From Escherichia phage anhysbys, in sequence record NC_052656.1: a stretch of DNA of 64,000 bases; one strand, given 5' to 3'. Below the pieces are notes generated by a model. That model had not been told where the DNA came from and ran no database searches. It worked only from the letters and a program-made list of their open reading frames with translations. Shown here piece after piece: positions 48,027 to 64,000 of this stretch. Position numbers and translations under genes: made by a program. Position 1 is the first letter of the stretch, and every line of letters begins with the position of its first letter.

Positions 48027-50180
48027 ATGAAACAAGCTATATTTACTGTCACGCGAGACAAGAGAGTAAATGCGAGTTCATTTAACTACACGACTGTTGA
48101 CGGAACAGCAGTCGCTGGTAGAGATTATATTGCAAAATCGGGAACACTTGTGTTCCCTGATGATGCTGATTCTGCTACTATTGTGGTTGAAGTATTTGAA
48201 CGACCAAAGAACTCAATAGATCTTAACTTCTCCCTCCAAGTTTCAGGGATTAGTCAAAATAACATGATGGTTGAAACAACCATCAATTGTATTATAACTA
48301 CTATCCAAGAAAATACTACTCCAATAACTTGGACTACAAAAGACGTTAAAATGTTCTCTCCTATGTATTGGACAATAGATTCTCAAGCAACGGAAAGTTG
48401 TTCTATTGTATCTCATGGAGACTCTTTTACTGCAAGATTTGTAAACAGAACAACAGCAGGTTTGGCAGGGGTTATCTGGAGCACAGTTGACAAATATGAC
48501 CATAAAGGTGTTGGGTATTTGCCTCACACAGATTTAAGTTCAGAGAAACTTTGGTTTAAAATGGAAATTAGTCAAAACATGCCAGGTTTTAAAGAAGAAC
48601 CTTTGGTGCCGACTTTGACTGTAACTCTCCTGGATAAAAGTGTTCATTATGTCAGTTTAGGATTCTACGCTTCAGATATTTCAGAAGATGGTAAAACAGC
48701 CACAATAAAGTTAGATTTTGGTAATATCTTTTCTGGCCCTAATAATGATATTCCTTTGGATATGAGTGCTGTAGATAATATTTTCTTCTCTTTGATTACA
48801 GCAAGGTATGAAGAAATAGAAGAGATTGTACCTATTGCCAGTCAAGAGGCTTGGTTTACTTTCACTCTTCTTGAACCTACTTCTGGTTACAGTATGATGA
48901 AAGTCAGCAACCTTGTCCAGCCTGAACATGATATTCACATGTGCACATCTTATGATGATATGTATAACCTGACTCCAGAGAGAGTTATTTATAATACATA
49001 TGCACTAGGTTATCGTGGAATGATTAACCATTACAACGGAATGTCTCACTATTATGAGTTCTCATGGAACGGAACATCTTGGGCTTTAAATAGATCTGTT
49101 TTCCTGAATCCGGCTACAGAAGCTTGGCTTAACAGTTTCCATTCTATAGCTAATGAAAATGGCTACACAATAATGAACTCTTTGAGTTTTGAGTTGATGA
49201 GCACAGTTTGTCCTGTTGAATGGGTCCAGCATGATTGGAACGATGCTCTTGCAGCAACAGGGTATAAGCCTCCTAGTTACGTGTTGTCTCCAACTATTGA
49301 CGAAGGTATGGAATATTTGCAAAATGTTATTAACAAAATAGCATCTATTTCTCAAGCTAATAACATTCCAGTCGTCATTCAAATTGGTGAACCTTGGTGG
49401 TGGTATAATACAGCAAGTAAAATGCCTTGTATATATGATTACACTACCAAACTGGCATTCAATACAGAAACAGGTTTATTTGCACAAGATGCAGGAACAA
49501 TAGATGATTATAAAACAGGAACGCCGTTTGACGAATACTATGCATTTTTGTCTCGTAAACTAGGATTAAGAGTTACAAAGTTTGCAACAGATACTAGAGC
49601 AACTTACCCAGGAGCCAAGGTAACATTGCTTCCGTTCTTGCCATCAATTATCGGCAACGGTTTGATGGAGAAAGTTAACTTCCCGTCTGATTACTACATT
49701 CCTGAAGCTTTTGATTTTTACTGTTCAGAGTGTTATGACTGGCTTCTGGAAGGTAAGATGATGAAAGCATTTGATGCAATTACTATACCACATGAAAAAT
49801 TAGGTTTTGAATATTCTGATATTCACTACCTTTCAGGTTTTGTTCCAGATGCTACTCTTGCACCTTTGTATGGCTTTGATCCTAAATCAAACTACCGCAC
49901 ATATCTTTGGAAGATGATTATAGGTAACATAGTGTTGAACGCCAATAAGTTTGACGGACTTACACAATATATATGGGCCTATCCTCAAATAATGCATGAT
50001 TCTATCACGGTAGTTAATTCTCAATCCCAAGTTTTCTATATGGGTAACGTGCCTTTGAACGTTTATTTACAGGATATCACTCTTAAACAGGTAAATGTTG
50101 AGATTGCCACCATAAGTGGAATTACATTAGCCACTAAATCTGGAGAAGATTTAGTAACAACACAAAAATTTTATATATAG
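48027..50180 (+). CDS. tail protein with N-terminal Calx-beta domain
   Basis: 717 aa; VTRDKRVNASSFNYTTVDGTAVAGRDYIAKSGTLVFPDDADSATIVVEV matches the Calx-beta consensus. Confidence 0.5.
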   Translation: MKQAIFTVTRDKRVNASSFNYTTVDGTAVAGRDYIAKSGTLVFPDDADSATIVVEVFERPKNSIDLNFSLQVSGISQNNMMVETTINCIITTIQENTTPITWTTKDVKMFSPMYWTIDSQATESCSIVSHGDSFTARFVNRTTAGLAGVIWSTVDKYDHKGVGYLPHTDLSSEKLWFKMEISQNMPGFKEEPLVPTLTVTLLDKSVHYVSLGFYASDISEDGKTATIKLDFGNIFSGPNNDIPLDMSAVDNIFFSLITARYEEIEEIVPIASQEAWFTFTLLEPTSGYSMMKVSNLVQPEHDIHMCTSYDDMYNLTPERVIYNTYALGYRGMINHYNGMSHYYEFSWNGTSWALNRSVFLNPATEAWLNSFHSIANENGYTIMNSLSFELMSTVCPVEWVQHDWNDALAATGYKPPSYVLSPTIDEGMEYLQNVINKIASISQANNIPVVIQIGEPWWWYNTASKMPCIYDYTTKLAFNTETGLFAQDAGTIDDYKTGTPFDEYYAFLSRKLGLRVTKFATDTRATYPGAKVTLLPFLPSIIGNGLMEKVNFPSDYYIPEAFDFYCSECYDWLLEGKMMKAFDAITIPHEKLGFEYSDIHYLSGFVPDATLAPLYGFDPKSNYRTYLWKMIIGNIVLNANKFDGLTQYIWAYPQIMHDSITVVNSQSQVFYMGNVPLNVYLQDITLKQVNVEIATISGITLATKSGEDLVTTQKFYI

Positions 50181-50188
50181 GAGTAAAA

Positions 50189-52264
50189 ATGTCAACTACA
50201 ATTACTAATTTACCCGAAACATCAAAAGTTAATGATTCTGATTACCTGGTTTTAGACCAACCTGATAAGACTGTTAAAAGCACAGTTTCCAACTTTCTTA
50301 CTGACACTGGGGTGGTTTTAGCCACCCAGTTGAAAGATACAGATGGAGCAGATATGATCGGGGTTCCAACAACAGAAACTTCTTTGGGGGAATTGCTTTC
50401 ATCTGATGATATGGCCATCAAATATAGTTATGTCAACCCAACAATCAGTGAAAGGCTTGGGCGTGAAGGGGCGAAGGTTGTTTTGGTCGGCGACAGTCTG
50501 AGCAGTTTCTTCAACATAGATTCTGTAAACACAGCGTCTATCTTTGAGTCTTACCTGCGCCGCAAGATCATGGAATTCAACAGTACGGCGAAGTTCTATA
50601 ACAGAGCCATCGGCGGCAAGCGTTACTATGACTTGGGTAGAAATGAACCGCCTCTTAATGCTCTGAAGAGCGGATACCCTTGGTATACAGACACGTCCAA
50701 GCGTTGGATGACTTACTTGGACGATCTTAAACCAGATGTGATCTTCTTGGCCTTTGGTATGAACGATGGCGCTGGCTGGGACGTGGGTAACTTTCAACAA
50801 GATAACTTCTTCAAGATGATGGAAGAACTTAAGTCCATCAGTTCAAGCCCTGAGTTGGTGTTTTGTACTAATATTCTTCCTTCTACAACACATGTTGATA
50901 CCGCAACAGAAGACCAGCAGCAGGGGCGTGATGCGATGGCTGGCTGGACAAGAAGTTTTGCCAGAAAGGCGGGATATAGCTTCCTTGATCTTCATAGACG
51001 TTTCAAATGCTTACGTGATGGTGTAGACCCGTGCATGGCTAGTTATGCCCGTAAAACCATTCAGAAAGTGGTGTCGCTTCCGTATGTACACACCGCCCAG
51101 TGTGATATGTATTCGGCTCGGGTAATTTTGATCGATCCAGCCGTCGCGACCACAGGTATTAGATTCCAGTTGTCGAAGTATTCTAACAACTTCATGACCT
51201 TGAAATACGATACCACGACATCGCGCTGGATAACGACCGCATATACAGCTTCTTTCTCTTCCGTTGGCATCGCTGATCAGAGTTCTATGCCTGGCCCAGC
51301 CCCGGCTGAGGGAACAGAGATATACTTCACCATGAACGGTGACGTTGTCGTAATAACCATCGGCATCAACACATATCCGGTGTTCAGCCGTAATATTGTG
51401 CGCTTCGGTGGTAAATTCTTCCCTCAAATCGGCGGAACTGGTGATATTCGGATTGACATGATTGAGGGTACACCTATCCCTGTTAAATCAGAGTTGACGG
51501 ATTATGATTGCTACAACACTGACGGCGATGGCGGGAATGGCATCAACCACCCAACAGCCAAAGCGAGTTCCCGAATTTATACTCGCGTTGTTGACGACTG
51601 GTTCAGTATGTTTGCTGGGTCTGTTAGTTCCAGAAAGCAGGTGCTGGACATTGACTTTGTCAACGGCACTGTTGTGGTGAGAAACCCGTATAGCCCAGAA
51701 CTATCTTGTGAAGACAAAATCAGCGCCGCCCTGACTTTTATCAACGGATCACTCGCATACCAACGCGACGCTCAGGGACGTGTCATTGGAGCGGTGTTTG
51801 GGGCTACGAACAGAGCGTATGTTGACCAGGCTTTCTTCAATGCTTATGCGGGGAATTACAGCCAGCTCACATTTGAAGTAGAGTTCGTTGCCCCGAGCGC
51901 CCAGGCATACATCTGCACGTTCGGGGAAAACACCACAAGTGACCGAATCATAGCTCAGGTCACAAGTGATTTACGCCCAAGAATCACGGCAGCCGTGGCA
52001 TCACAAGCCAGCGACCTTTTCGGTTCAGCTTCGTTCCCATTTGTTGCTGGACGGAAATACGCTTTGAAATTCTCTTTAGATTGTGAGAATTCGGTCGCGC
52101 AGATGTGGGGGCAGAACAACTCCGCGCGAGGTAACATCAACGTCACCCCTATAACCGCCATATCTCCGGCGACGCTATCCAAGCTGAAACTTGGTTATGC
52201 GTCAACTGGAACATTTGGTGTAGATGTCGTGGTTTCAAGAATCAGAGTCTGGTTCTCCAACTGA
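50189..52264 (+). CDS. tail fibre/spike with SGNH (GDSL) hydrolase domain (candidate surface-polysaccharide esterase/deacetylase)
   Basis: 691 aa; block I VVLVGDSLSSFF, block III GMNDGAGW; AT-rich N-terminal ~80 codons, GC-rich remainder. Confidence 0.6.
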   Translation: MSTTITNLPETSKVNDSDYLVLDQPDKTVKSTVSNFLTDTGVVLATQLKDTDGADMIGVPTTETSLGELLSSDDMAIKYSYVNPTISERLGREGAKVVLVGDSLSSFFNIDSVNTASIFESYLRRKIMEFNSTAKFYNRAIGGKRYYDLGRNEPPLNALKSGYPWYTDTSKRWMTYLDDLKPDVIFLAFGMNDGAGWDVGNFQQDNFFKMMEELKSISSSPELVFCTNILPSTTHVDTATEDQQQGRDAMAGWTRSFARKAGYSFLDLHRRFKCLRDGVDPCMASYARKTIQKVVSLPYVHTAQCDMYSARVILIDPAVATTGIRFQLSKYSNNFMTLKYDTTTSRWITTAYTASFSSVGIADQSSMPGPAPAEGTEIYFTMNGDVVVITIGINTYPVFSRNIVRFGGKFFPQIGGTGDIRIDMIEGTPIPVKSELTDYDCYNTDGDGGNGINHPTAKASSRIYTRVVDDWFSMFAGSVSSRKQVLDIDFVNGTVVVRNPYSPELSCEDKISAALTFINGSLAYQRDAQGRVIGAVFGATNRAYVDQAFFNAYAGNYSQLTFEVEFVAPSAQAYICTFGENTTSDRIIAQVTSDLRPRITAAVASQASDLFGSASFPFVAGRKYALKFSLDCENSVAQMWGQNNSARGNINVTPITAISPATLSKLKLGYASTGTFGVDVVVSRIRVWFSN

Positions 52265-56750: not shown

Positions 56751-57086
56751 ATGGAATTTCAAGAAGCATGGGGACTTGCCAAGGATGCAATTATCCCTTT
56801 AATCGGAGTCATCTGGTTCTTTTTCAAACAAAAAATGGATAAATTCGGCTCTGATCTTGAGGAAATGGAGGAGAAAAGTCGAGAGCTAGAGAAGAAGTTG
56901 GTTTTTGTTGAATCAACTTATGCAACTAAAGCCGAACTTACCCAGATGCTAAATCAAATTAACTCTACATTAATGGCAAATAATAACACTCTTGAGCAAA
57001 AAATTGAAAAGATTATGGACCTCAAGAATGCGACTATTCAAATGATGCTAGATGACATAGTTAAACGTACACAGAATAAGGGGTAA
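56751..57086 (+). CDS. small coiled-coil/membrane-anchored protein
   Basis: 111 aa; N-terminal hydrophobic segment then coiled coil. Confidence 0.4.
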   Translation: MEFQEAWGLAKDAIIPLIGVIWFFFKQKMDKFGSDLEEMEEKSRELEKKLVFVESTYATKAELTQMLNQINSTLMANNNTLEQKIEKIMDLKNATIQMMLDDIVKRTQNKG

Positions 57087-57089
57087 TTA

Positions 57090-60000
57090 ATGGCAACATT
57101 CCCAACATATCCAGCAACGTCTCTTGAACAGGGCGTAGATCTGGTTATTTTCTCGTCTAACCAACTCCATGATGTTATTAATGGAAGTGCTACAGAGAGT
57201 ATTGAAACAGAATCAGGGTTGATACCAACCCTTAGAAAAGCCCTTGTTGACAACTTCTTTTTTAAGAGTCCCTTGGATTGGGCGCAAGGCACGAATGAAA
57301 CAGTTTTTAACCAACTTCGCTATTTCCAGAATGGAGTGTTGAGTGGTTATTACTATGCGCCTAATGCTACACTGGTAAACCCTATCCCTATGCAAGGTAC
57401 TCCAGTAGGGGATAATAACTGGGTATTGTGGGGACTGAAGACAGAACAATTAGCAACAGAAGTCACCCCTTGGGTATATTCTGGTGCAACTGGTTATGAA
57501 ACAGTAATCAGCCCTCCCTACATCTTTGATAGTGCTATTGTTACGATCAATGGTGTTATTCAGGTTCTGGGAGAAGCTTTCCGCATAGAAGATAGTAAAA
57601 TCATCTTATCTGAACCTTTGGGACATGATCCTGCAACAGGACTACCAAACAAGCTTTTTGCTTATATTGGTAAAATCGTAGCTTCCGCAGATACAGATCC
57701 TAACCTAGAGAACCGTCTTGTCAGTTTAGAAACAAAAACCGAAGAACTGACAGAAAGTATGGATAAAGTTCCGCTGCAAACCATTGCTCGTAAGTATGGT
57801 TTGTTAGACGATGAGGTAGCTTATGCTACAGTAGGACAGTCTTTAACAGGTATTAAAGCTCTGTATGATCCGGTAGCACAGTCTTCCTACACATTACCTC
57901 CTAGCATCACAGGAACTTTAACATCCTTATCTGTTTCTGGAGTAATGACTTATTCTGGAGGATCTGTAGACCTTTCTGCACTGGCTGTTGAGCGTGGACA
58001 GTTTGTTCATTTGCCTACAAGCTTTGGTAATAACGTAACTCTGACAGCTAAAAATCAGACGATTGGACGTGGTGCTGGTCGTTATCGTTGGGCTGGAAGT
58101 TTACCAAAAAGCATTTTGGCCTCTGATACATTGGAGACAAGCGGTGGATTAGGTCCAAATGCATGGGTTCTGACCAATACAGAAGGACTGTTAACTCCTC
58201 GTGGTGGAACATACAACGATTTATTCGATGTTGTCTACTTGTCAGAATTTGCTAACAACACAACAACATATACCACACCAGAAGCAGCTTTCCAAGCGGC
58301 ACTGTTAGCAGCAAAAGCTTCGAAAAGCAAGATTCTCGATGCTTACGGTTGCGATATGACTTTCACGACAAGCTCTTTTGATATTCAAGGTATCACTTTG
58401 CGTGGGGGTGTGTTCCGTGGTCAACGCGACTATCGTGTGCAAAATGCTACAGTAGAAGGCACAACTTTCCGTAACTCTCGTGTTATGTATTGGGGTGGTG
58501 CTGTGCGCATGTTCGATTGTTTGTGGGACGGTGCTCCTCGCGCAGGTCAAGTTGGTAGCTTGGTATTCCAAGGCAACCCAATATCAGGTACTTTTGAAAT
58601 TGATAACTGTACTTTTAAAAACGGGTTGTATGGCATCCTTCAACAAGGAACAGGAGAACCAGTAACACGTGGTGTCTTCCGTAACCTTACCTTCATGGAC
58701 ATGCAAGGTGATGCAATAGAACTGAACGTCATCAATAAACATTATGACGATGGTTGTGTGATTGAGAATATTTACCTGTCTAATATCGATGGAACTAATG
58801 CTCCTATTCCTCTGTCGAACTGGGGTATCGGTATCGGTGTAGCTGGTAAAGGACCATATGGTTACGGAATCCCTGATGATCAATATTGTAAGAATATTAC
58901 AATTCGTAACGTTTTTGCAAAACGTTGCCGTCAAATTGTCCACGTAGAAGTTGGTCGTAATATTTCTATCGAAAACATTCATGGCGATCCAGATCAAACC
59001 GTATCTGTTGGGACAGGTTTGGCAACTGGCGCAGTTGTAATGTATGGAAGTAAAGACTTTACGATTGATGGTGTTTATGGAGAGCCTAAAACAGATGGTA
59101 GCACACTTGCAAGTAATATCCGTATGATTTACTTGGAGTGGGGAACTAACGCAGTTCTGGATGAAGAGGGTAATCCGGTAGTTCCGGCACAGGGCAGACC
59201 TTCAAATCCATGCTTTAACTATTCTGTTCGTAACATTCACACCAAAACTGGGCGTGTTTTTGCGGGAGTTTCCGCTGGGCCAGGTTATGAAAACAGAGTT
59301 AGCTTTGAAAATATTCGTTGCGCTGCATTGCAGTTGTTCGGTATAGCTTCTTGGCTTTCAATGTCTAACATCACTTGTAATATCTTCGATTGTGTTGGTC
59401 AACCTGAATCTGGTCCAGGGACATTTTATGATGGATTCTTCCGTAGAGAAAAATCTGTTCTTGAAATGGTTAACGTAAACTGTTACCCAGATGGCAAGAC
59501 GATGGTTACTGGTCGTCCACAGTGGAGCCGTTGCCGTTACTCTGATATTCATCGTGTCAACTGTAATGTTGAAGCTAATATGTATACCAATATCGCAGGT
59601 GGTATTGGAGCTATCGTAGGAACAACGGGCAAAGTTTATTACTTAGAGCCTAATCCTAGTCGAAACATTGATGGAATGCATTTCCCAACAGGGAAAGAGT
59701 TTGACAAAGGTGATATGATAGTCAAGGCGGATAATACGTTCTTCCTTGTGACAACAAGTGGGGCATATATTCCAGATATCCCAGCTTTCGGTATTCGAGC
59801 TACACAGGCAGGAGATACCTTCCTGACACAGAACTTGACTCCTAACGGGACAGCAACAAATGCTTCTTGGTTGTATCATTACCCTCTGTCAGCAGGGACA
59901 CGTATCCGTATTCCTGGTGCTGGTGTAGGTGGAGCAGATTTGGACACAGTTATTACTCGTGCGCCTTATCAAGATAATGATACGTGGACTAACCCAGTTA

Positions 60001-60143
60001 AAATAGACATTGCAGATCCAATTGTAACGCCTACAAGTGCTGGAGTTAGAATTAAAACCATACCTAATGATTCCAGTAATGTTTCTGTAGGTAATACTGC
60101 GGTTATTCGCCCAACGCCAGTAGTAGATGTGCCAACAACCTAA
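57090..60143 (+). CDS. tailspike with parallel beta-helix (pectate-lyase-like) domain
   Basis: 1017 aa; repeated N/G-x-hydrophobic rungs (NITIRNVFAKRCRQIVHVEVGRNISIENIHGD, RNSRVMYWGGAVRMFDC). Confidence 0.5.
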   Translation: MATFPTYPATSLEQGVDLVIFSSNQLHDVINGSATESIETESGLIPTLRKALVDNFFFKSPLDWAQGTNETVFNQLRYFQNGVLSGYYYAPNATLVNPIPMQGTPVGDNNWVLWGLKTEQLATEVTPWVYSGATGYETVISPPYIFDSAIVTINGVIQVLGEAFRIEDSKIILSEPLGHDPATGLPNKLFAYIGKIVASADTDPNLENRLVSLETKTEELTESMDKVPLQTIARKYGLLDDEVAYATVGQSLTGIKALYDPVAQSSYTLPPSITGTLTSLSVSGVMTYSGGSVDLSALAVERGQFVHLPTSFGNNVTLTAKNQTIGRGAGRYRWAGSLPKSILASDTLETSGGLGPNAWVLTNTEGLLTPRGGTYNDLFDVVYLSEFANNTTTYTTPEAAFQAALLAAKASKSKILDAYGCDMTFTTSSFDIQGITLRGGVFRGQRDYRVQNATVEGTTFRNSRVMYWGGAVRMFDCLWDGAPRAGQVGSLVFQGNPISGTFEIDNCTFKNGLYGILQQGTGEPVTRGVFRNLTFMDMQGDAIELNVINKHYDDGCVIENIYLSNIDGTNAPIPLSNWGIGIGVAGKGPYGYGIPDDQYCKNITIRNVFAKRCRQIVHVEVGRNISIENIHGDPDQTVSVGTGLATGAVVMYGSKDFTIDGVYGEPKTDGSTLASNIRMIYLEWGTNAVLDEEGNPVVPAQGRPSNPCFNYSVRNIHTKTGRVFAGVSAGPGYENRVSFENIRCAALQLFGIASWLSMSNITCNIFDCVGQPESGPGTFYDGFFRREKSVLEMVNVNCYPDGKTMVTGRPQWSRCRYSDIHRVNCNVEANMYTNIAGGIGAIVGTTGKVYYLEPNPSRNIDGMHFPTGKEFDKGDMIVKADNTFFLVTTSGAYIPDIPAFGIRATQAGDTFLTQNLTPNGTATNASWLYHYPLSAGTRIRIPGAGVGGADLDTVITRAPYQDNDTWTNPVKIDIADPIVTPTSAGVRIKTIPNDSSNVSVGNTAVIRPTPVVDVPTT

Positions 60144-60149
60144 TGGAAC

Positions 60150-60172
60150 AGAGGGGGAATCCCCCTCTTCTT
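60150..60172 (+). terminator. hairpin (weak terminator)
   Basis: GAGGGGG-AAT-CCCCCTC hairpin; poor U-run. Confidence 0.35.
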
Positions 60173-60204
60173 CCAATAGAATGGTCTAATGATAGGAGAG
60201 ATAA

Positions 60205-62229
60205 ATGAATTTAACAAGACCTAATAGTGCGATAGCCGATCTGGTAGAAGCTACTTATCGAAAACGTCGCAGCTTTGAGGCAGGTTTTACATTACGTAAT
60301 TCCCGTGAAGTTTTGCTGTTAGCAGCAGAAGGGAATTATTACCAATGGAAAGGAACTTTTCCTAAAATAGTTCCAGCAAACTCTACGCCAGCCACCACAG
60401 GTGGTATTTCTTCCCTTGCATGGCAAAATGTTGGGACCGCTGATGATATAGCAATTATCAATGCCAAGTTTACGGCAGTGCAGCAACAGATTGATGATCT
60501 GTCGGAAACAATACCTGAAGCTGGTAAATCGGCTTATCAGATCGCACTTGATAATGGTTTTGTTGGAACAGAAGCACAATGGCTTGCTTCTTTGAAAGGG
60601 GATACTGGTGCTCAACTTAATATTAAAGGATCATTAGCAAGCACTAGTGAACTACCATCCACAGGTAACGTTGCAGGGGATGGTTATATCGTAGGTGATG
60701 TAATCTACGCTTGGGATGGTTCTGTTTGGAAACTTATTTCTTCTCTTGGGCCAGAAGGTAAATCAGCTTACGAGGTATGGTTGGCAGATGGTAATACAGG
60801 ATCTGTTTATGATTTTCTTACCTCTATAAAAGGTGATAAAGGAGATGTTGGTCCTACAGGGCCACAGGGAGCACCTGGTGTTAACGCCAACGGTTTTGAT
60901 TATCGTGGAGATTTGCCTTCTACAAGTAACTTACCACAACCTAACTCTGAAAACGTAAGCCAAGCTTATTCTATCAGTGGTAATCTTTATGTCTCTAATG
61001 GGACAGCTTGGGTCAACATGGGTAATATTGTTGGTCCTCAAGGTCCACAAGGTGAGGCAGGTAAAGACGGTCTTGATGGAACAGATGGAGATGAAGGGAA
61101 ATCTGCATATCAAAGTTGGCTGGATGCTGGTAATGAAGGGACAGAAGTAGATTTTATTGCTTCCTTAAAAGGAGAGAAGGGTGACAAAGGTGAGAAGGGC
61201 GATCCTGGTCCACAAGGTGAACAGGGTGTTCAGGGTATCCAAGGTCCGGTTGGTGCAGGTCTTTCTGTAAATGGTGAATTGTCAGATGTTTCAGAACTAC
61301 CTTCTGTAGCGGAGGTTGGTGATGCCTACGTTGTAAAAAATGATCTTTACGTGTGGATCGACGACAATCAAACGTGGCTCAATGTAGGTAGTTTGGGTGG
61401 TAGATCTATTACAGCTAAAGGTCATGTTGCAAATGGAGAAGCTCTCCCTGTTTATAATAATTATGGTGATGCCTATTTAACTGAAGACACCAGTAATCTT
61501 TACATCTATACCTACGATCAAGACACCAATTCCGCATCTTTTGTTGACATGGGAAGTATTAAAGGCGACAAAGGTGAAAAAGGGGATAAAGGAGATAAGG
61601 GTGATCCTGGAACAAACGGAACCAACGGTACTGATGGGACCAACGGTAAGGACGGCGCACAGTGGTTTGTAGCAACAACTAATCCAGTCGCAGGAGACGG
61701 TGCTATCAATGATTACGCCTTCAATACTACCACTGGAGCAGTGTTCAAGAAAACAGATTCTTCTACTTGGACACTTATAGGAACTCTTCCTAGTATACCA
61801 GAAGCCCCTCAAGACGGCTTGACGTATGGTCGTTCTGATGGGAACTGGATTGAAATATCAGGATCAGATCCTACGGAAGCTATAACACCAACTAGAGTTA
61901 CAGCAGGTTTCATGGAACTTGAAACAACTACTGCCAACTCTGGAGCATCTTGGACTCCTTCTGGAACTTCCAATATGTATGTTGTTACAGTAACCGATGC
62001 TTTAACAGTTGGAGCATGGCCTGGTGTCACTGGCTCTACAAAACCTAAAGCATTTTCAGCAATGATTTATTTGATTCAAGATACAACGGGACACACGGTT
62101 ACACTAGATGCGTCTTATGGAGCACTGAATGATACAGAAATAGCAACTACTGCTAACGCAGTAACAATTTTGCAATTAACGTATCCTGGTGTGGGTAATA
62201 TCGTGGACATGGTTGTTGTAACACGATAA
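60205..62229 (+). CDS. tail fibre with collagen-like Gly-X-Y repeats and repeated ~30-aa modules
   Basis: 674 aa; GDKGDVGPTGPQGAPG, GEKGDKGEKGDPGPQGEQGVQGIQGPVG, GDKGEKGDKGDKGDPGTNGTNGTDGTNGKDG; three copies of GKSAY(Q/E)xWLxxG...SLKG module. Confidence 0.6.
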   Translation: MNLTRPNSAIADLVEATYRKRRSFEAGFTLRNSREVLLLAAEGNYYQWKGTFPKIVPANSTPATTGGISSLAWQNVGTADDIAIINAKFTAVQQQIDDLSETIPEAGKSAYQIALDNGFVGTEAQWLASLKGDTGAQLNIKGSLASTSELPSTGNVAGDGYIVGDVIYAWDGSVWKLISSLGPEGKSAYEVWLADGNTGSVYDFLTSIKGDKGDVGPTGPQGAPGVNANGFDYRGDLPSTSNLPQPNSENVSQAYSISGNLYVSNGTAWVNMGNIVGPQGPQGEAGKDGLDGTDGDEGKSAYQSWLDAGNEGTEVDFIASLKGEKGDKGEKGDPGPQGEQGVQGIQGPVGAGLSVNGELSDVSELPSVAEVGDAYVVKNDLYVWIDDNQTWLNVGSLGGRSITAKGHVANGEALPVYNNYGDAYLTEDTSNLYIYTYDQDTNSASFVDMGSIKGDKGEKGDKGDKGDPGTNGTNGTDGTNGKDGAQWFVATTNPVAGDGAINDYAFNTTTGAVFKKTDSSTWTLIGTLPSIPEAPQDGLTYGRSDGNWIEISGSDPTEAITPTRVTAGFMELETTTANSGASWTPSGTSNMYVVTVTDALTVGAWPGVTGSTKPKAFSAMIYLIQDTTGHTVTLDASYGALNDTEIATTANAVTILQLTYPGVGNIVDMVVVTR

Positions 62230-62233
62230 CAGA

Positions 62234-62257
62234 AGCCCCGAAAGGGGCTTTCTTTTT
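62234..62257 (+). terminator. intrinsic terminator
   Basis: AGCCCC-GAAA-GGGGCT followed by TTCTTTTT. Confidence 0.7.
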
Positions 62258-62270
62258 ATGGAGGGTTTAA

Positions 62271-64000
62271 ATGTTTCCAATTCCAATATTTACTATTATG
62301 ACCAGCACTGGTGTCGTTCCTCTGCCAGCAGGCATTGTTAAAAAAGTAATTACTTTAGATTACCCAGATAACGCTGGTAATTCTAACAGCAGTTTAGCAA
62401 TTTTGCTTAATGATGGTAGATTGTTTACTCAAGGCGCAAACCTCTTTGGTGAGATTGCAGATGGAACTCGTAGTGCACGATTCAATAATTTCCACTTAGC
62501 TTCTACTGTAGTAGCGGATGTGTTTACCGCAGATCGTTGTTTTGTTATTAAAACTAACAGTGGGGGATGGCAATATTCAGGATTGACAGCAGGGTTGGTA
62601 GGATCTATAGCAGCAGGTGGTACGGATGCATGTGTAACTACTTGGACCAGCTTTCCATCTGTAATAACAGGGACTATTTCTTTAGCCAATCTTAAAGAGG
62701 TTAAAGGAGGGTATAACAATACTCTCTGGTTAATGAATAGTGGTGTTCTTTACGGATCTGGTCAAAACACAGTAGGCAGTTTAGGTGCAAGTACTACTAA
62801 CGAAGTTTCTACTCCTCGTCAGATAACAAGTTCAGCAGTTGCTTTTGATGCAGGTTACAACCAATGCTCTTATGTCAACAATGTGGGAACCTTGCGTGTT
62901 TGTGGAGCTAGTAAAGGTTTAGCAGGTAATAATAACACAACAACCGCTTTTGTCAATGCCACGATATCCACTACTGAAACAGTGTATGTCAAAGATTACA
63001 TCAATACAGTTTCCCAGACAATAATTGTAGGAGATACCTCCGGTGGCGCGGGTACAGTAAACTACTTATATGTTAGATCTAATACAGAAACAACCTACAC
63101 TAAACTGGACACCTTTGCAGCAGGTTTCTCAACATGGAAATTTCCACCAAGCCGCCACTCTTTTTTCGTTGGGATCAATAATTCCTTGTGGGCTATTGGT
63201 AAGAACTACACTGCAAACTTAGGTTTGGGGTATGATTCTGCGAGCGGAGATCCACTACAAGTGGGAAAACCAGTTAAACCTGAAGGAGTGGGTTCCTGGG
63301 ATATAAACAAGCTCACAAGCGTTCATACGCTGAATATGGATATTACTAACCAATTAGGTTATCAAGGAACCTTTTTCGTTTATAACGGGGATATGTATTA
63401 TTCCGGTATTTGGAAAGATGGGAAAGCCTCGTATTTGTTCAATAGTGGTCTAAACTATAATAAATTCACACCAATAGCAAGCTCTGTGATTACGGGGGAT
63501 GTGCTGGCAACTAGCTTAACTACAGATTCTTTAGGAATTTGTATTGTAGGTGGAACTAAACAGTTGACACATTCTGTTAGCCCAGAAGGAGGTAAACTTT
63601 TCAATATTAAATACACTTCTTCTGCCCCTGCAAACATGACAATATCATCCACTGGTTTAATGACTTTCCATGCAGAAGGTGGTTTTGATGCGGGTATGAC
63701 AGCCTTAAACGCTGAAGGAACAACTTTATCAGATACCTCTGGAGGATATGCTTCAACATTAAGTGTTTACACCCCTAGCTTATCTGCAATGGATGTAGGA
63801 ACAACACAAACAATGGTAGCAGAAATAACGCCAACAGGGGCAGCAAGCTTACCTGGTATGGTTGTTGAGTATACAACTACAGACCCTAATGTTGCTACAG
63901 TAGATCCTACAACTGGTGTAATAACTGGTGTTGGTGACGGTGGTTGTAGAATTGGTTGCACAGCTACGTATCAAGGTGTTGTTACCGCTTCTGATAGTTC
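62271..64000 (+). CDS. tail fibre/adhesin with propeller-like repeats and C-terminal Big_2-like Ig domain (runs off window end)
   Basis: GGAGGG RBS then ATG 62271; frame open to 64000 (absent from ORF track for lack of stop); Gly/Ser/Thr-rich repeats; final ~80 aa resemble a bacterial Ig-like domain. Confidence 0.5.
   Translation, partial: MFPIPIFTIMTSTGVVPLPAGIVKKVITLDYPDNAGNSNSSLAILLNDGRLFTQGANLFGEIADGTRSARFNNFHLASTVVADVFTADRCFVIKTNSGGWQYSGLTAGLVGSIAAGGTDACVTTWTSFPSVITGTISLANLKEVKGGYNNTLWLMNSGVLYGSGQNTVGSLGASTTNEVSTPRQITSSAVAFDAGYNQCSYVNNVGTLRVCGASKGLAGNNNTTTAFVNATISTTETVYVKDYINTVSQTIIVGDTSGGAGTVNYLYVRSNTETTYTKLDTFAAGFSTWKFPPSRHSFFVGINNSLWAIGKNYTANLGLGYDSASGDPLQVGKPVKPEGVGSWDINKLTSVHTLNMDITNQLGYQGTFFVYNGDMYYSGIWKDGKASYLFNSGLNYNKFTPIASSVITGDVLATSLTTDSLGICIVGGTKQLTHSVSPEGGKLFNIKYTSSAPANMTISSTGLMTFHAEGGFDAGMTALNAEGTTLSDTSGGYASTLSVYTPSLSAMDVGTTQTMVAEITPTGAASLPGMVVEYTTTDPNVATVDPTTGVITGVGDGGCRIGCTATYQGVVTASDS

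Follow-up and report, generated by a model that had tools for sequence, protein, structure and literature searches.

A complete gene for a collagen-like tail fibre was identified at positions 60205–62229 (+ strand) of the window, the 64,000-nucleotide (nt) stretch of NC_052656.1 (Escherichia phage anhysbys) in which all coordinates below are given. The gene encodes 674 amino acids (aa), starts at an ATG with an AGGAG ribosome-binding site 8 nt 5' of it, and is followed directly 3' of the stop codon by a hairpin resembling an intrinsic terminator (62232–62251, +; GAAGCCCC-GAAA-GGGGCTTT, then a T-run). Bases 57000–64000 are 96–97% identical to Escherichia phages tuntematon, nieznany and phAPEC8 and to about 60 others, and on this nucleotide identity the stretch is assigned to a phAPEC8-like myophage (Phapecoctavirus, Stephanstirmvirinae). 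The fibre gene itself shows 96–98% DNA identity with more than 60 Phapecoctavirus genomes, in which it is annotated as "tail fiber protein". Its product matches the PHROG 15437 profile ('tail fiber protein') over residues 1–674 (E 0; profile positions 1–655 of 656) and is 57.7% identical to phi92 gp151 across aa 3–674. Judged by these alignments, it is the orthologue of gp151 and of the phAPEC8 'putative phage tail fiber protein', which is named TfpM2 in the phiWec phages.

A preliminary description of this gene had reported three copies of a module of about 30 residues interleaved with Gly-X-Y runs. The three GKSAY...SLKG peptides that it quoted occur verbatim at aa 107–135, 185–213 and 298–326, and the repeats are significant, with pairwise local alignment scores of 70–101 against 18–20 ± 4 for shuffled sequences (z 12.9–17.9; none of 500 shuffles scored as high). 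The copies, referred to here as module A, share 14–18 identities per ~30 residues in pairwise comparison and are 48–60% identical as protein. Four uninterrupted Gly-X-Y runs of 6, 8, 10 and 11 triplets, 105 residues in total, were also found. Pfam Collagen (PF01391) matched them in four stretches with 48 bits against a cut-off of 27.2 (E 1e-12), and a search of the protein against NCBIfam returned collagen adhesin matches that were all far below threshold.

The interleaving of modules and collagen is real, but it is not the simple alternation first described: two types of module take part in it, and the first A copy does not adjoin a collagen run, being followed by only two triplets (GDTGAQ) and then by module B. 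Module B is a second internal repeat of ~47 aa with the consensus G..(5)G..LP..G..GD.Y.V...L..W.G..W...G, which had been missed, and it is present in four clear copies (z 4–13) and a degenerate fifth at aa 484–530. The N-terminal domain, the coiled coil, the foldon and the C-terminal domain had likewise been overlooked. The full order is Tail_spike_N, a three-heptad coiled coil, A-B-A-col6-B-col8-A-col10-B-B-col11, the degenerate fifth B, the foldon and a C-terminal knob. The internal duplication proposed earlier is supported by the alignments of both the A and the B repeats and by hidden Markov models (HMMs) of the modules, which were built from the protein's own A and B copies and iterated on the 120 best homologues.

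The protein was modelled with AlphaFold2 (AF2) as a single chain, using 27 homologues, and a second model covered aa 484–674. At the N-terminus, a docking domain of the Tail_spike_N family (PF18668; E 5.2e-19, 68.6 bits, cut-off 25) occupies 60238–60441 (aa 12–79; this and all following segments lie on the + strand) and was predicted with a pLDDT (predicted local distance difference test) of 85–90. In both a PDB sequence search and Foldseek (probability 1.0), its counterpart was the D2 part found within the N-terminal modules of the CBA120 tailspikes TSP1/3/4 and of G7C gp63.1. A coiled-coil neck of three heptads follows at 60445–60513 (aa 81–103; AF2 helix 81–102), with I82, I85, F89, V92, I96, L99 and I103 as the hydrophobic residues at the a and d positions.

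Each module A was predicted as two short helices with a pLDDT of ~70–77. Copy A1, located at 60523–60600 (aa 107–132; helix-turn-helix 110–116/123–131), belongs to a flavour termed A-type (A8/F13/W20) and leads into module B. Copies A2 (60757–60834, aa 185–210; helices 188–194/201–209; W8/N13/F20) and A3 (61096–61173, aa 298–323; helices 301–307/314–321) are of the W-type. The B modules were predicted as four-stranded sheets with a pLDDT of 80–89. They comprise B1 at 60610–60750 (aa 136–182; HMM E 4e-23; strands 139–144, 159–163, 166–170 and 175–180, pLDDT ~85), B2 at 60889–61035 (aa 229–277; HMM E 8e-23; strands 232–237, 253–257, 260–264 and 269–274), B3 at 61255–61398 (aa 351–398; HMM E 7e-26) and B4 at 61402–61566 (aa 400–454; HMM E 3e-23; strands 403–408, 422–426, 431–438 and 443–451), the last of which carries an insertion. 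The degenerate fifth B-like module (61654–61794, aa 484–530) aligned to B1 with a z of 6.1 and was predicted with four strands (pLDDT 80–94 in the sub-model); it scored below the B HMM threshold.

Between these modules lie the collagen runs. Run 1 (60832–60885, aa 210–227, 6 triplets), whose first Gly is the last Gly of A2, is invariant in length among relatives, and run 2 (61033–61104, aa 277–300, 8 triplets) has 5–11 triplets in them. Run 3 (61171–61260, aa 323–352, 10 triplets) is rich in K-G-D/E and ranges from 8 to 10 triplets in relatives. The most length-variable is run 4 (61564–61662, aa 454–486, 11 triplets), which in relatives is either absent or 4–13 triplets long. Downstream of the fifth B-like module, a foldon-like beta-hairpin occupies 61792–61860 (aa 530–552; IPEAPQDGLTYGRSDGNWIEIS; AF2 hairpin 540–544/547–551), and a beta-sandwich knob of 117 aa, presumed to be the receptor-binding tip, completes the protein at 61876–62226 (aa 558–674; pLDDT 83–95).

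The foldon-like hairpin is identical to the T4 fibritin foldon at 13 of 22 residues (score 76 against 25.7 ± 3.8 for shuffles, z 13.2), and all of the key residues are kept, namely Pro4, Glu5, Pro7, Asp9-Gly10, Tyr13, Arg15, Asp17-Gly18 and Trp20 in foldon numbering. The motif is conserved in most aligned relatives, and a comparison with foldon chains in the PDB gave E 0.01–0.02, with 1nay among the matches. The knob resembles the C-terminus of the phiTE long tail fibre (9cuy_g residues 678–790; E 9e-8) and shares 50% identity with the C-terminus of the 'putative tail fiber protein' ORF28 of rV5. The phiTE entry 9cuy was considered as a solved fold for the knob and rejected, since only residues 14–171 of that fibre were modelled (PMC11972413). 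A homologue search with the C-terminal 145 aa returned three fragments only.

A trimeric fibre had also been suggested. This is strongly, though indirectly, indicated by the collagen runs, the foldon, the coiled coil, the Tail_spike_N domain and the PHROG 15437 match. The collagen runs are short and contain only 9 Pro among their 105 residues, and they received low confidence in the AF2 model, so that they could be read as flexible Gly-rich linkers that form no triple helix. Against such a reading stand the strict placement of Gly at every third position without interruption, indels that in relatives always comprise whole triplets, and the Pfam Collagen score above the cut-off. In addition, the runs meet their flanking modules at zero-gap junctions, a trimerising foldon lies downstream, and low pLDDT is expected when an obligate trimer is predicted as a monomer. 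K-G-D/E motifs are enriched as well: 10 of the 12 in the protein lie within the runs or at their first Gly. In peptide studies this charge-pair pattern stabilises triple helices. We consider the linker explanation highly improbable.

The preliminary description had further proposed that fibre length could change by gain or loss of modules. This holds among distant homologues: across the 120 homologues compared, module A ranged from 0 to 21 copies, module B from 0 to 11 and the collagen runs from 4 to 35 triplets, and a wider search extended the A count to 38. Within the fibre's own lineage, however, the module number is fixed, and all full-length collinear relatives, including the phi92-like phages at ~58% identity, carry 3 A and 4 B. 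Among the 66 genomes with at least 80% coverage of the gene, its span is exactly 2025 nt in nearly every one; the exceptions are −9 nt and −18 nt in two genomes and one of +76 nt. DNA-level repeats shared by the A or the B copies of the fibre gene were looked for and none was found, and imperfect 9-nt tandem DNA repeats are confined to the inside of collagen runs 2 and 4. Because the A and B copies lack shared DNA repeats, there is no substrate here for ongoing module-level recombination. Module shuffling is thus a long-term pattern of the protein class; in this lineage the count is frozen and triplet slippage alone is visible.

These data also bear on the idea that the GKSAY modules are recently duplicated cassettes among which recombination alters fibre length within the lineage. 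The wide variation of module numbers in distant homologues would agree with it, as would a relative with two extra B-plus-collagen units (P0015) and the 512-aa fibre of Escherichia phage vB_EcoM_EP57 (P0006), which is 99% identical and has an in-frame deletion of 162 aa. The EP57 deletion starts within A3 and reaches the end of collagen run 4 (against 61156–61644); its junction does not lie between like modules, and this single record could represent either a genuine short-fibre variant or an error of assembly. Recent duplication is also opposed by the 48–60% protein identity of the A copies, by the missing common DNA repeat, by the constant module count and gene length noted above, and by the non-equivalence of the copies, one A-type and two W-type. 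There is little probability in this explanation.

Variation of another kind was observed in a mosaic patch at aa 324–411 (61174–61437), in run 3 and B3, which holds 33 of the 41 aa differences from the commonest allele (cluster P0001, 168 members). The patch suggests an exchanged block or local diversification. Most genomes align to the gene in two megablast pieces with 92–93% coverage, which may reflect this patch.

The arrangement of modules and collagen runs was examined in 121 proteins, which are related and therefore not independent of one another. Of the 902 collagen runs in this set, 885 lie no more than 10 residues from an A or B module at one end or both, and 661 are flanked in this way at both ends. 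In 352 of 360 cases, module A and the run share a Gly, which is the last of the module and the first of the run. The median run has 8 triplets. Module A exists in two mutually exclusive flavours, defined at positions 8, 13 and 20 in 478 canonical copies. The A-type has A, F or Y, and W at these positions in most of 319 copies, and the W-type has W, then N, H or G, then F or Y in nearly all of 157 copies. Ala8 was never combined with Asn, His or Gly at position 13, nor Trp8 with Trp20, in any of the 478. A collagen run follows the W-type in 139 of 157 copies; in the fibre itself, A1 (A-type) precedes a B module, and A2 and A3 (W-type) precede collagen.

In a search of 1.84 billion proteins, the module A profile detected 25,175 cluster representatives at E ≤ 0.001, and a single protein held as many as 38 copies. 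Two proteins that consist largely of A repeats, P0124 (2782 aa, 38 copies) and P0137 (731 aa, 13 copies), have no Pfam match at all. Module A is a large unnamed repeat family without a family model in the libraries searched. Against all PDB sequences its profile gave chance matches only (HincII, E 0.44), and the module B profile gave weak ones, to PhiKZ gp184 (8y6v_I, E 9e-4) and to a DUF2793 protein of JBD30 (8rk3, E 0.075). Several known families were compared with the modules. An identity of A or B with Phage_fiber_2/Pf2 (PF03406) was rejected, as the whole protein gave no match at E ≤ 1 and the isolated modules none at E ≤ 10. DUF2793 (PF10983) did not match B3 alone and reached a sub-threshold 15.8 bits in one homologue (P0048); in another protein, P0240, a DUF2793 domain at the N-terminus accompanies 7 A copies. 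DUF2934 (PF11154) was tried for module A and matched neither A1 alone nor the whole protein. Partial DUF2934 matches to the A copies of some homologues (P0029 aa 330–347, 35.7 bits; P0126; P0227) provide a lead only. In the literature, a full-text search for 'GKSAY' yielded nothing relevant, and the papers on Deep-Blue/Vp4 and on extracellular contractile injection system (eCIS) fibres contain no A module; the A/B grammar and the A flavours seem undescribed in the literature searched.

A broader proposal can be offered tentatively, and we regard it as doubtful. Module A, a unit of 26 aa predicted as a helix-turn-helix, may be an undescribed, very widespread trimerisation and registration cap for short, proline-poor collagen helices, in which the two flavours would represent compensating packings of one mini-core and the W flavour would be the N-terminal cap specialist. 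Together with B and the foldon, it might constitute a construction kit for beaded fibres of tunable length. If true, the A/B/foldon kit could be reused for recombinant collagen design. A family definition for module A, and a structure of its trimer, could be worthwhile; the family would help annotation and might supply natural domains that register collagen.

Taken together, the gene product is probably (at about 0.72) a structural protein that forms a homotrimeric, beaded fibre within the multivalent adsorption apparatus of the phAPEC8-like myophage. According to the proposed assembly, the C-proximal foldon-like hairpin and the knob would bring the three chains into register, after which the four collagen runs would fold as triple helices of 5.1, 6.9, 8.6 and 9.4 nm (~30 nm in total). 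The putatively trimeric A and B nodules, which abut the runs without a linker, probably hold these short triple helices; runs of 6–11 proline-poor triplets would be unstable alone. In this model, the helix-turn-helix of module A would pack with three-fold symmetry into a six-helix knot and module B would form a small beta nodule, with many ion pairs between Lys (Y) and Asp or Glu (X) across the intervening Gly adding stability. The product would be a thin, jointed fibre of very roughly 60–70 nm. Its N-terminal Tail_spike_N domain would plug into the branched fibre/spike complex at the baseplate, and its knob would make the first, reversible contact with a surface receptor.

Several observations weigh against this assignment. 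The collagen runs and the foldon have a pLDDT below 50 in the monomer model, which is to be expected when only one chain of an obligate trimer is modelled. The Pfam model Fibritin_C (PF07921) reached 12.4 bits in the fibre against a cut-off of 21 (E 0.18); more distant relatives with the Tail_spike_N and A-B-A start pass it, for example P0018 with 36.6 bits. The grammar counts, as stated, come from related proteins. The sole significant solved analogue of the C-terminal third is a capsid spike, that of Pa223 (9ny6_C; Foldseek against the PDB, E 7.5e-5 for the full model and 3.2e-4 for aa 484–674). In the 2026 phi92 cryo-electron microscopy paper, gp151 is among four candidate fibre proteins and was left unplaced in the averaged density; its AlphaFold3 (AF3) model fits none of the three fibre densities and resembles the Pa223 spike (PMC13450770). 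Failure to be placed is what a thin, flexible fibre would give in averaging. Finally, the docking on the colanidase discussed below is inferred from domain content alone.

Some of these points would suit a head or neck appendage, such as a capsid spike or a fibritin-like whisker, with a foldon and knob employed in the manner of T4 fibritin or Pa223 gp52. T4 fibritin, a collar/whisker protein, has the foldon motif as its hallmark; the only significant fold match for aa 484–674 is the Pa223 capsid spike, and the phi92 paper reports the same match for gp151, which it fits to no baseplate fibre density (PMC13450770). At its N-terminus, however, the protein has no capsid-binding arm or fibritin-type domain but the Tail_spike_N domain of baseplate- or adaptor-bound tailspikes. 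Its gene also belongs to the tail fibre cluster, where the genes for a tail fibre assembly protein and for the colanidase precede it, and the knob is common to rV5 ORF28 and to the phiTE long tail fibre, whose N-terminus is baseplate-bound. A head or neck location is therefore considered unlikely, and a beaded fibre of the adsorption apparatus is preferred.

In annotated relatives, the gene order is a short-fibre gene, a tail fibre assembly protein, a small lipoprotein, a colanic-acid-degrading tailspike, the collagen fibre and a large 'tail protein'. The tailspike gene next to the fibre gene lies at 57090–60143 (+; PHROG 6117, E 2e-282) and its product is composite. Residues 11–124 (57120–57461) match the baseplate-bound segment of the phiTE long tail fibre (9cuy_g 14–129, E 1.6e-18), a segment that was modelled for residues 14–171 (PMC11972413). 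Residues 226–366 (57765–58187) match the complete N-terminal module of CBA120 TSP1/3/4 and G7C gp63.1. The colanidase is a candidate docking partner for the fibre because it alone carries the baseplate-anchor segment. The collagen fibre has no phiTE anchor segment, yet it has the C-terminal knob of the same phiTE fibre. By these matches, the anchor and the tip of one phiTE protein appear here split over two adjacent genes, which fits, without proving, a collagen fibre that rides on another fibre protein and not on the wedge itself.

Further features were observed around this region. A GC-rich hairpin, AGAGGGGGAATCCCCCTCT, with no clear T-run, is present at 60149–60168 between the colanidase and fibre genes. 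The 'tail protein' downstream of the fibre (62271–64000, +) runs off the stretch, contains RCC1-like beta-propeller repeats and a Big_2 Ig-like domain, and measures 890 aa in relatives; this protein (TfpM1) is reported absent from phi92-like phages (PMC12695924). Two more tail-cluster proteins are encoded at 48027–50180 and 50189–52264 (+). One has a Calx-beta domain together with the N-terminal and TIM-barrel domains of the 'non-contractile tail sheath protein' (PF23845, 265 bits), and the other, with a GDSL/SGNH acylhydrolase domain, may correspond to the glycan deacetylase fibre tied in the BASEL paper to recognition of enterobacterial common antigen (ECA). The GC skew changes sign near 22 kb, from negative to positive, which probably marks a change of the predominant coding strand between genome modules. 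The fibre gene was also found with 96–98% DNA identity in MG065650 (Campylobacter phage B15), OP562383 (Acinetobacter phage ABPW7) and MH252123 (Klebsiella phage ZCKP1), the B15 fibre being 99.1% identical in aa sequence; the non-Escherichia host labels of these three phages look doubtful, or else reflect a very broad host range.

Phages of the phi92-like and phAPEC8-like groups have a broad host range and are candidates for therapy; the components of their adsorption apparatus still to be placed include gp151 and its orthologues. The domain map, consisting of a docking domain, a jointed shaft of ~60–70 nm, a foldon and a knob, shows what to seek, namely a thin fibre erased by averaging, and names the piece to swap or delete in order to find the receptor. 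More generally, in the analysis the short collagen rods of phage fibres proved, with few exceptions, to be clamped directly by two small modules. The general understanding of phage fibres is unchanged, as tail fibres that combine collagen-like parts with non-collagenous trimerisation domains are long known.

Compared with known systems, the fibre is an uncharacterised, already annotated member of a known phage fibre type. Its closest counterparts are phi92 gp151 (Justusliebigvirus) and the phAPEC8-like orthologues, which are collinear over their full length and occupy the same position after the colanidase gene. Representatives of the phi92-like cluster have the same A-B-A-c-B-c-A-c-B-B-c-foldon architecture; the collagen runs of gp151 differ from those of the fibre by a few triplets, and nothing of kind differs. 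In the enterohaemorrhagic Escherichia coli (EHEC) prophage proteins EPclA-D, collagen triple helices are capped by non-collagenous trimerisation domains and vary in length in multiples of three residues, and in EPclB two collagen domains are separated by a small repeat that forms a globular bead (PMC3368898). The EPcl proteins use other domains (PfN PF08400, PCoil, PfC PF06820 and Pf2 PF03406), none of which matched in the fibre at E ≤ 1, and they have one or two long collagen domains, whereas the fibre has four short ones and eight nodules.

In engineered collagen fusions, the foldon nucleates and registers the triple helix. The fibre shares the IPEAPxDGxxYxRxDGxW hairpin with the T4 fibritin foldon and places it just C-terminal to a collagen run, as in the engineered (GPP)10-foldon (PDB 1NAY); by analogy, it would nucleate folding here as well. 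In T4 fibritin, the foldon is terminal and follows a coiled coil, whereas in the fibre it is internal, after the B-like module and before the 117-aa knob. The Pa223 capsid spike gp52 (9NY6) is a homotrimer with an intertwined beta middle and a C-terminal knob resembling tumour necrosis factor (TNF), and is 12–16% identical to the fibre. Collagen, A modules and a foldon are all missing from the spike, which is attached to the capsid by an N-terminal arm and not by Tail_spike_N.

A similar design principle, with short triple helices and small beta domains, is found in the Tal extensions of Streptococcus thermophilus phages, in which AF2 models show variable-length collagen-like linkers alternating with '3-beta domains' of ~60 aa in a trimeric adhesion fibre (PMC9437275). 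The likeness is one of design, and the protein is a different one; these are siphophages of Gram-positive hosts, their extensions carry carbohydrate-binding modules, and no helical A module is described (PMC9437275). At the N-terminus, the fibre is homologous to CBA120 TSP1-4, G7C gp63.1/gp66 and the K1F endosialidase, in which this domain belongs to the part by which spikes are mounted on a branched adsorption complex. The fibre holds only the second half (D2) of the CBA120/G7C N-terminal module, and where the CBA120, G7C and K1F proteins continue into enzymatic beta-helix or sialidase bodies, it continues into a shaft of collagen and nodules.

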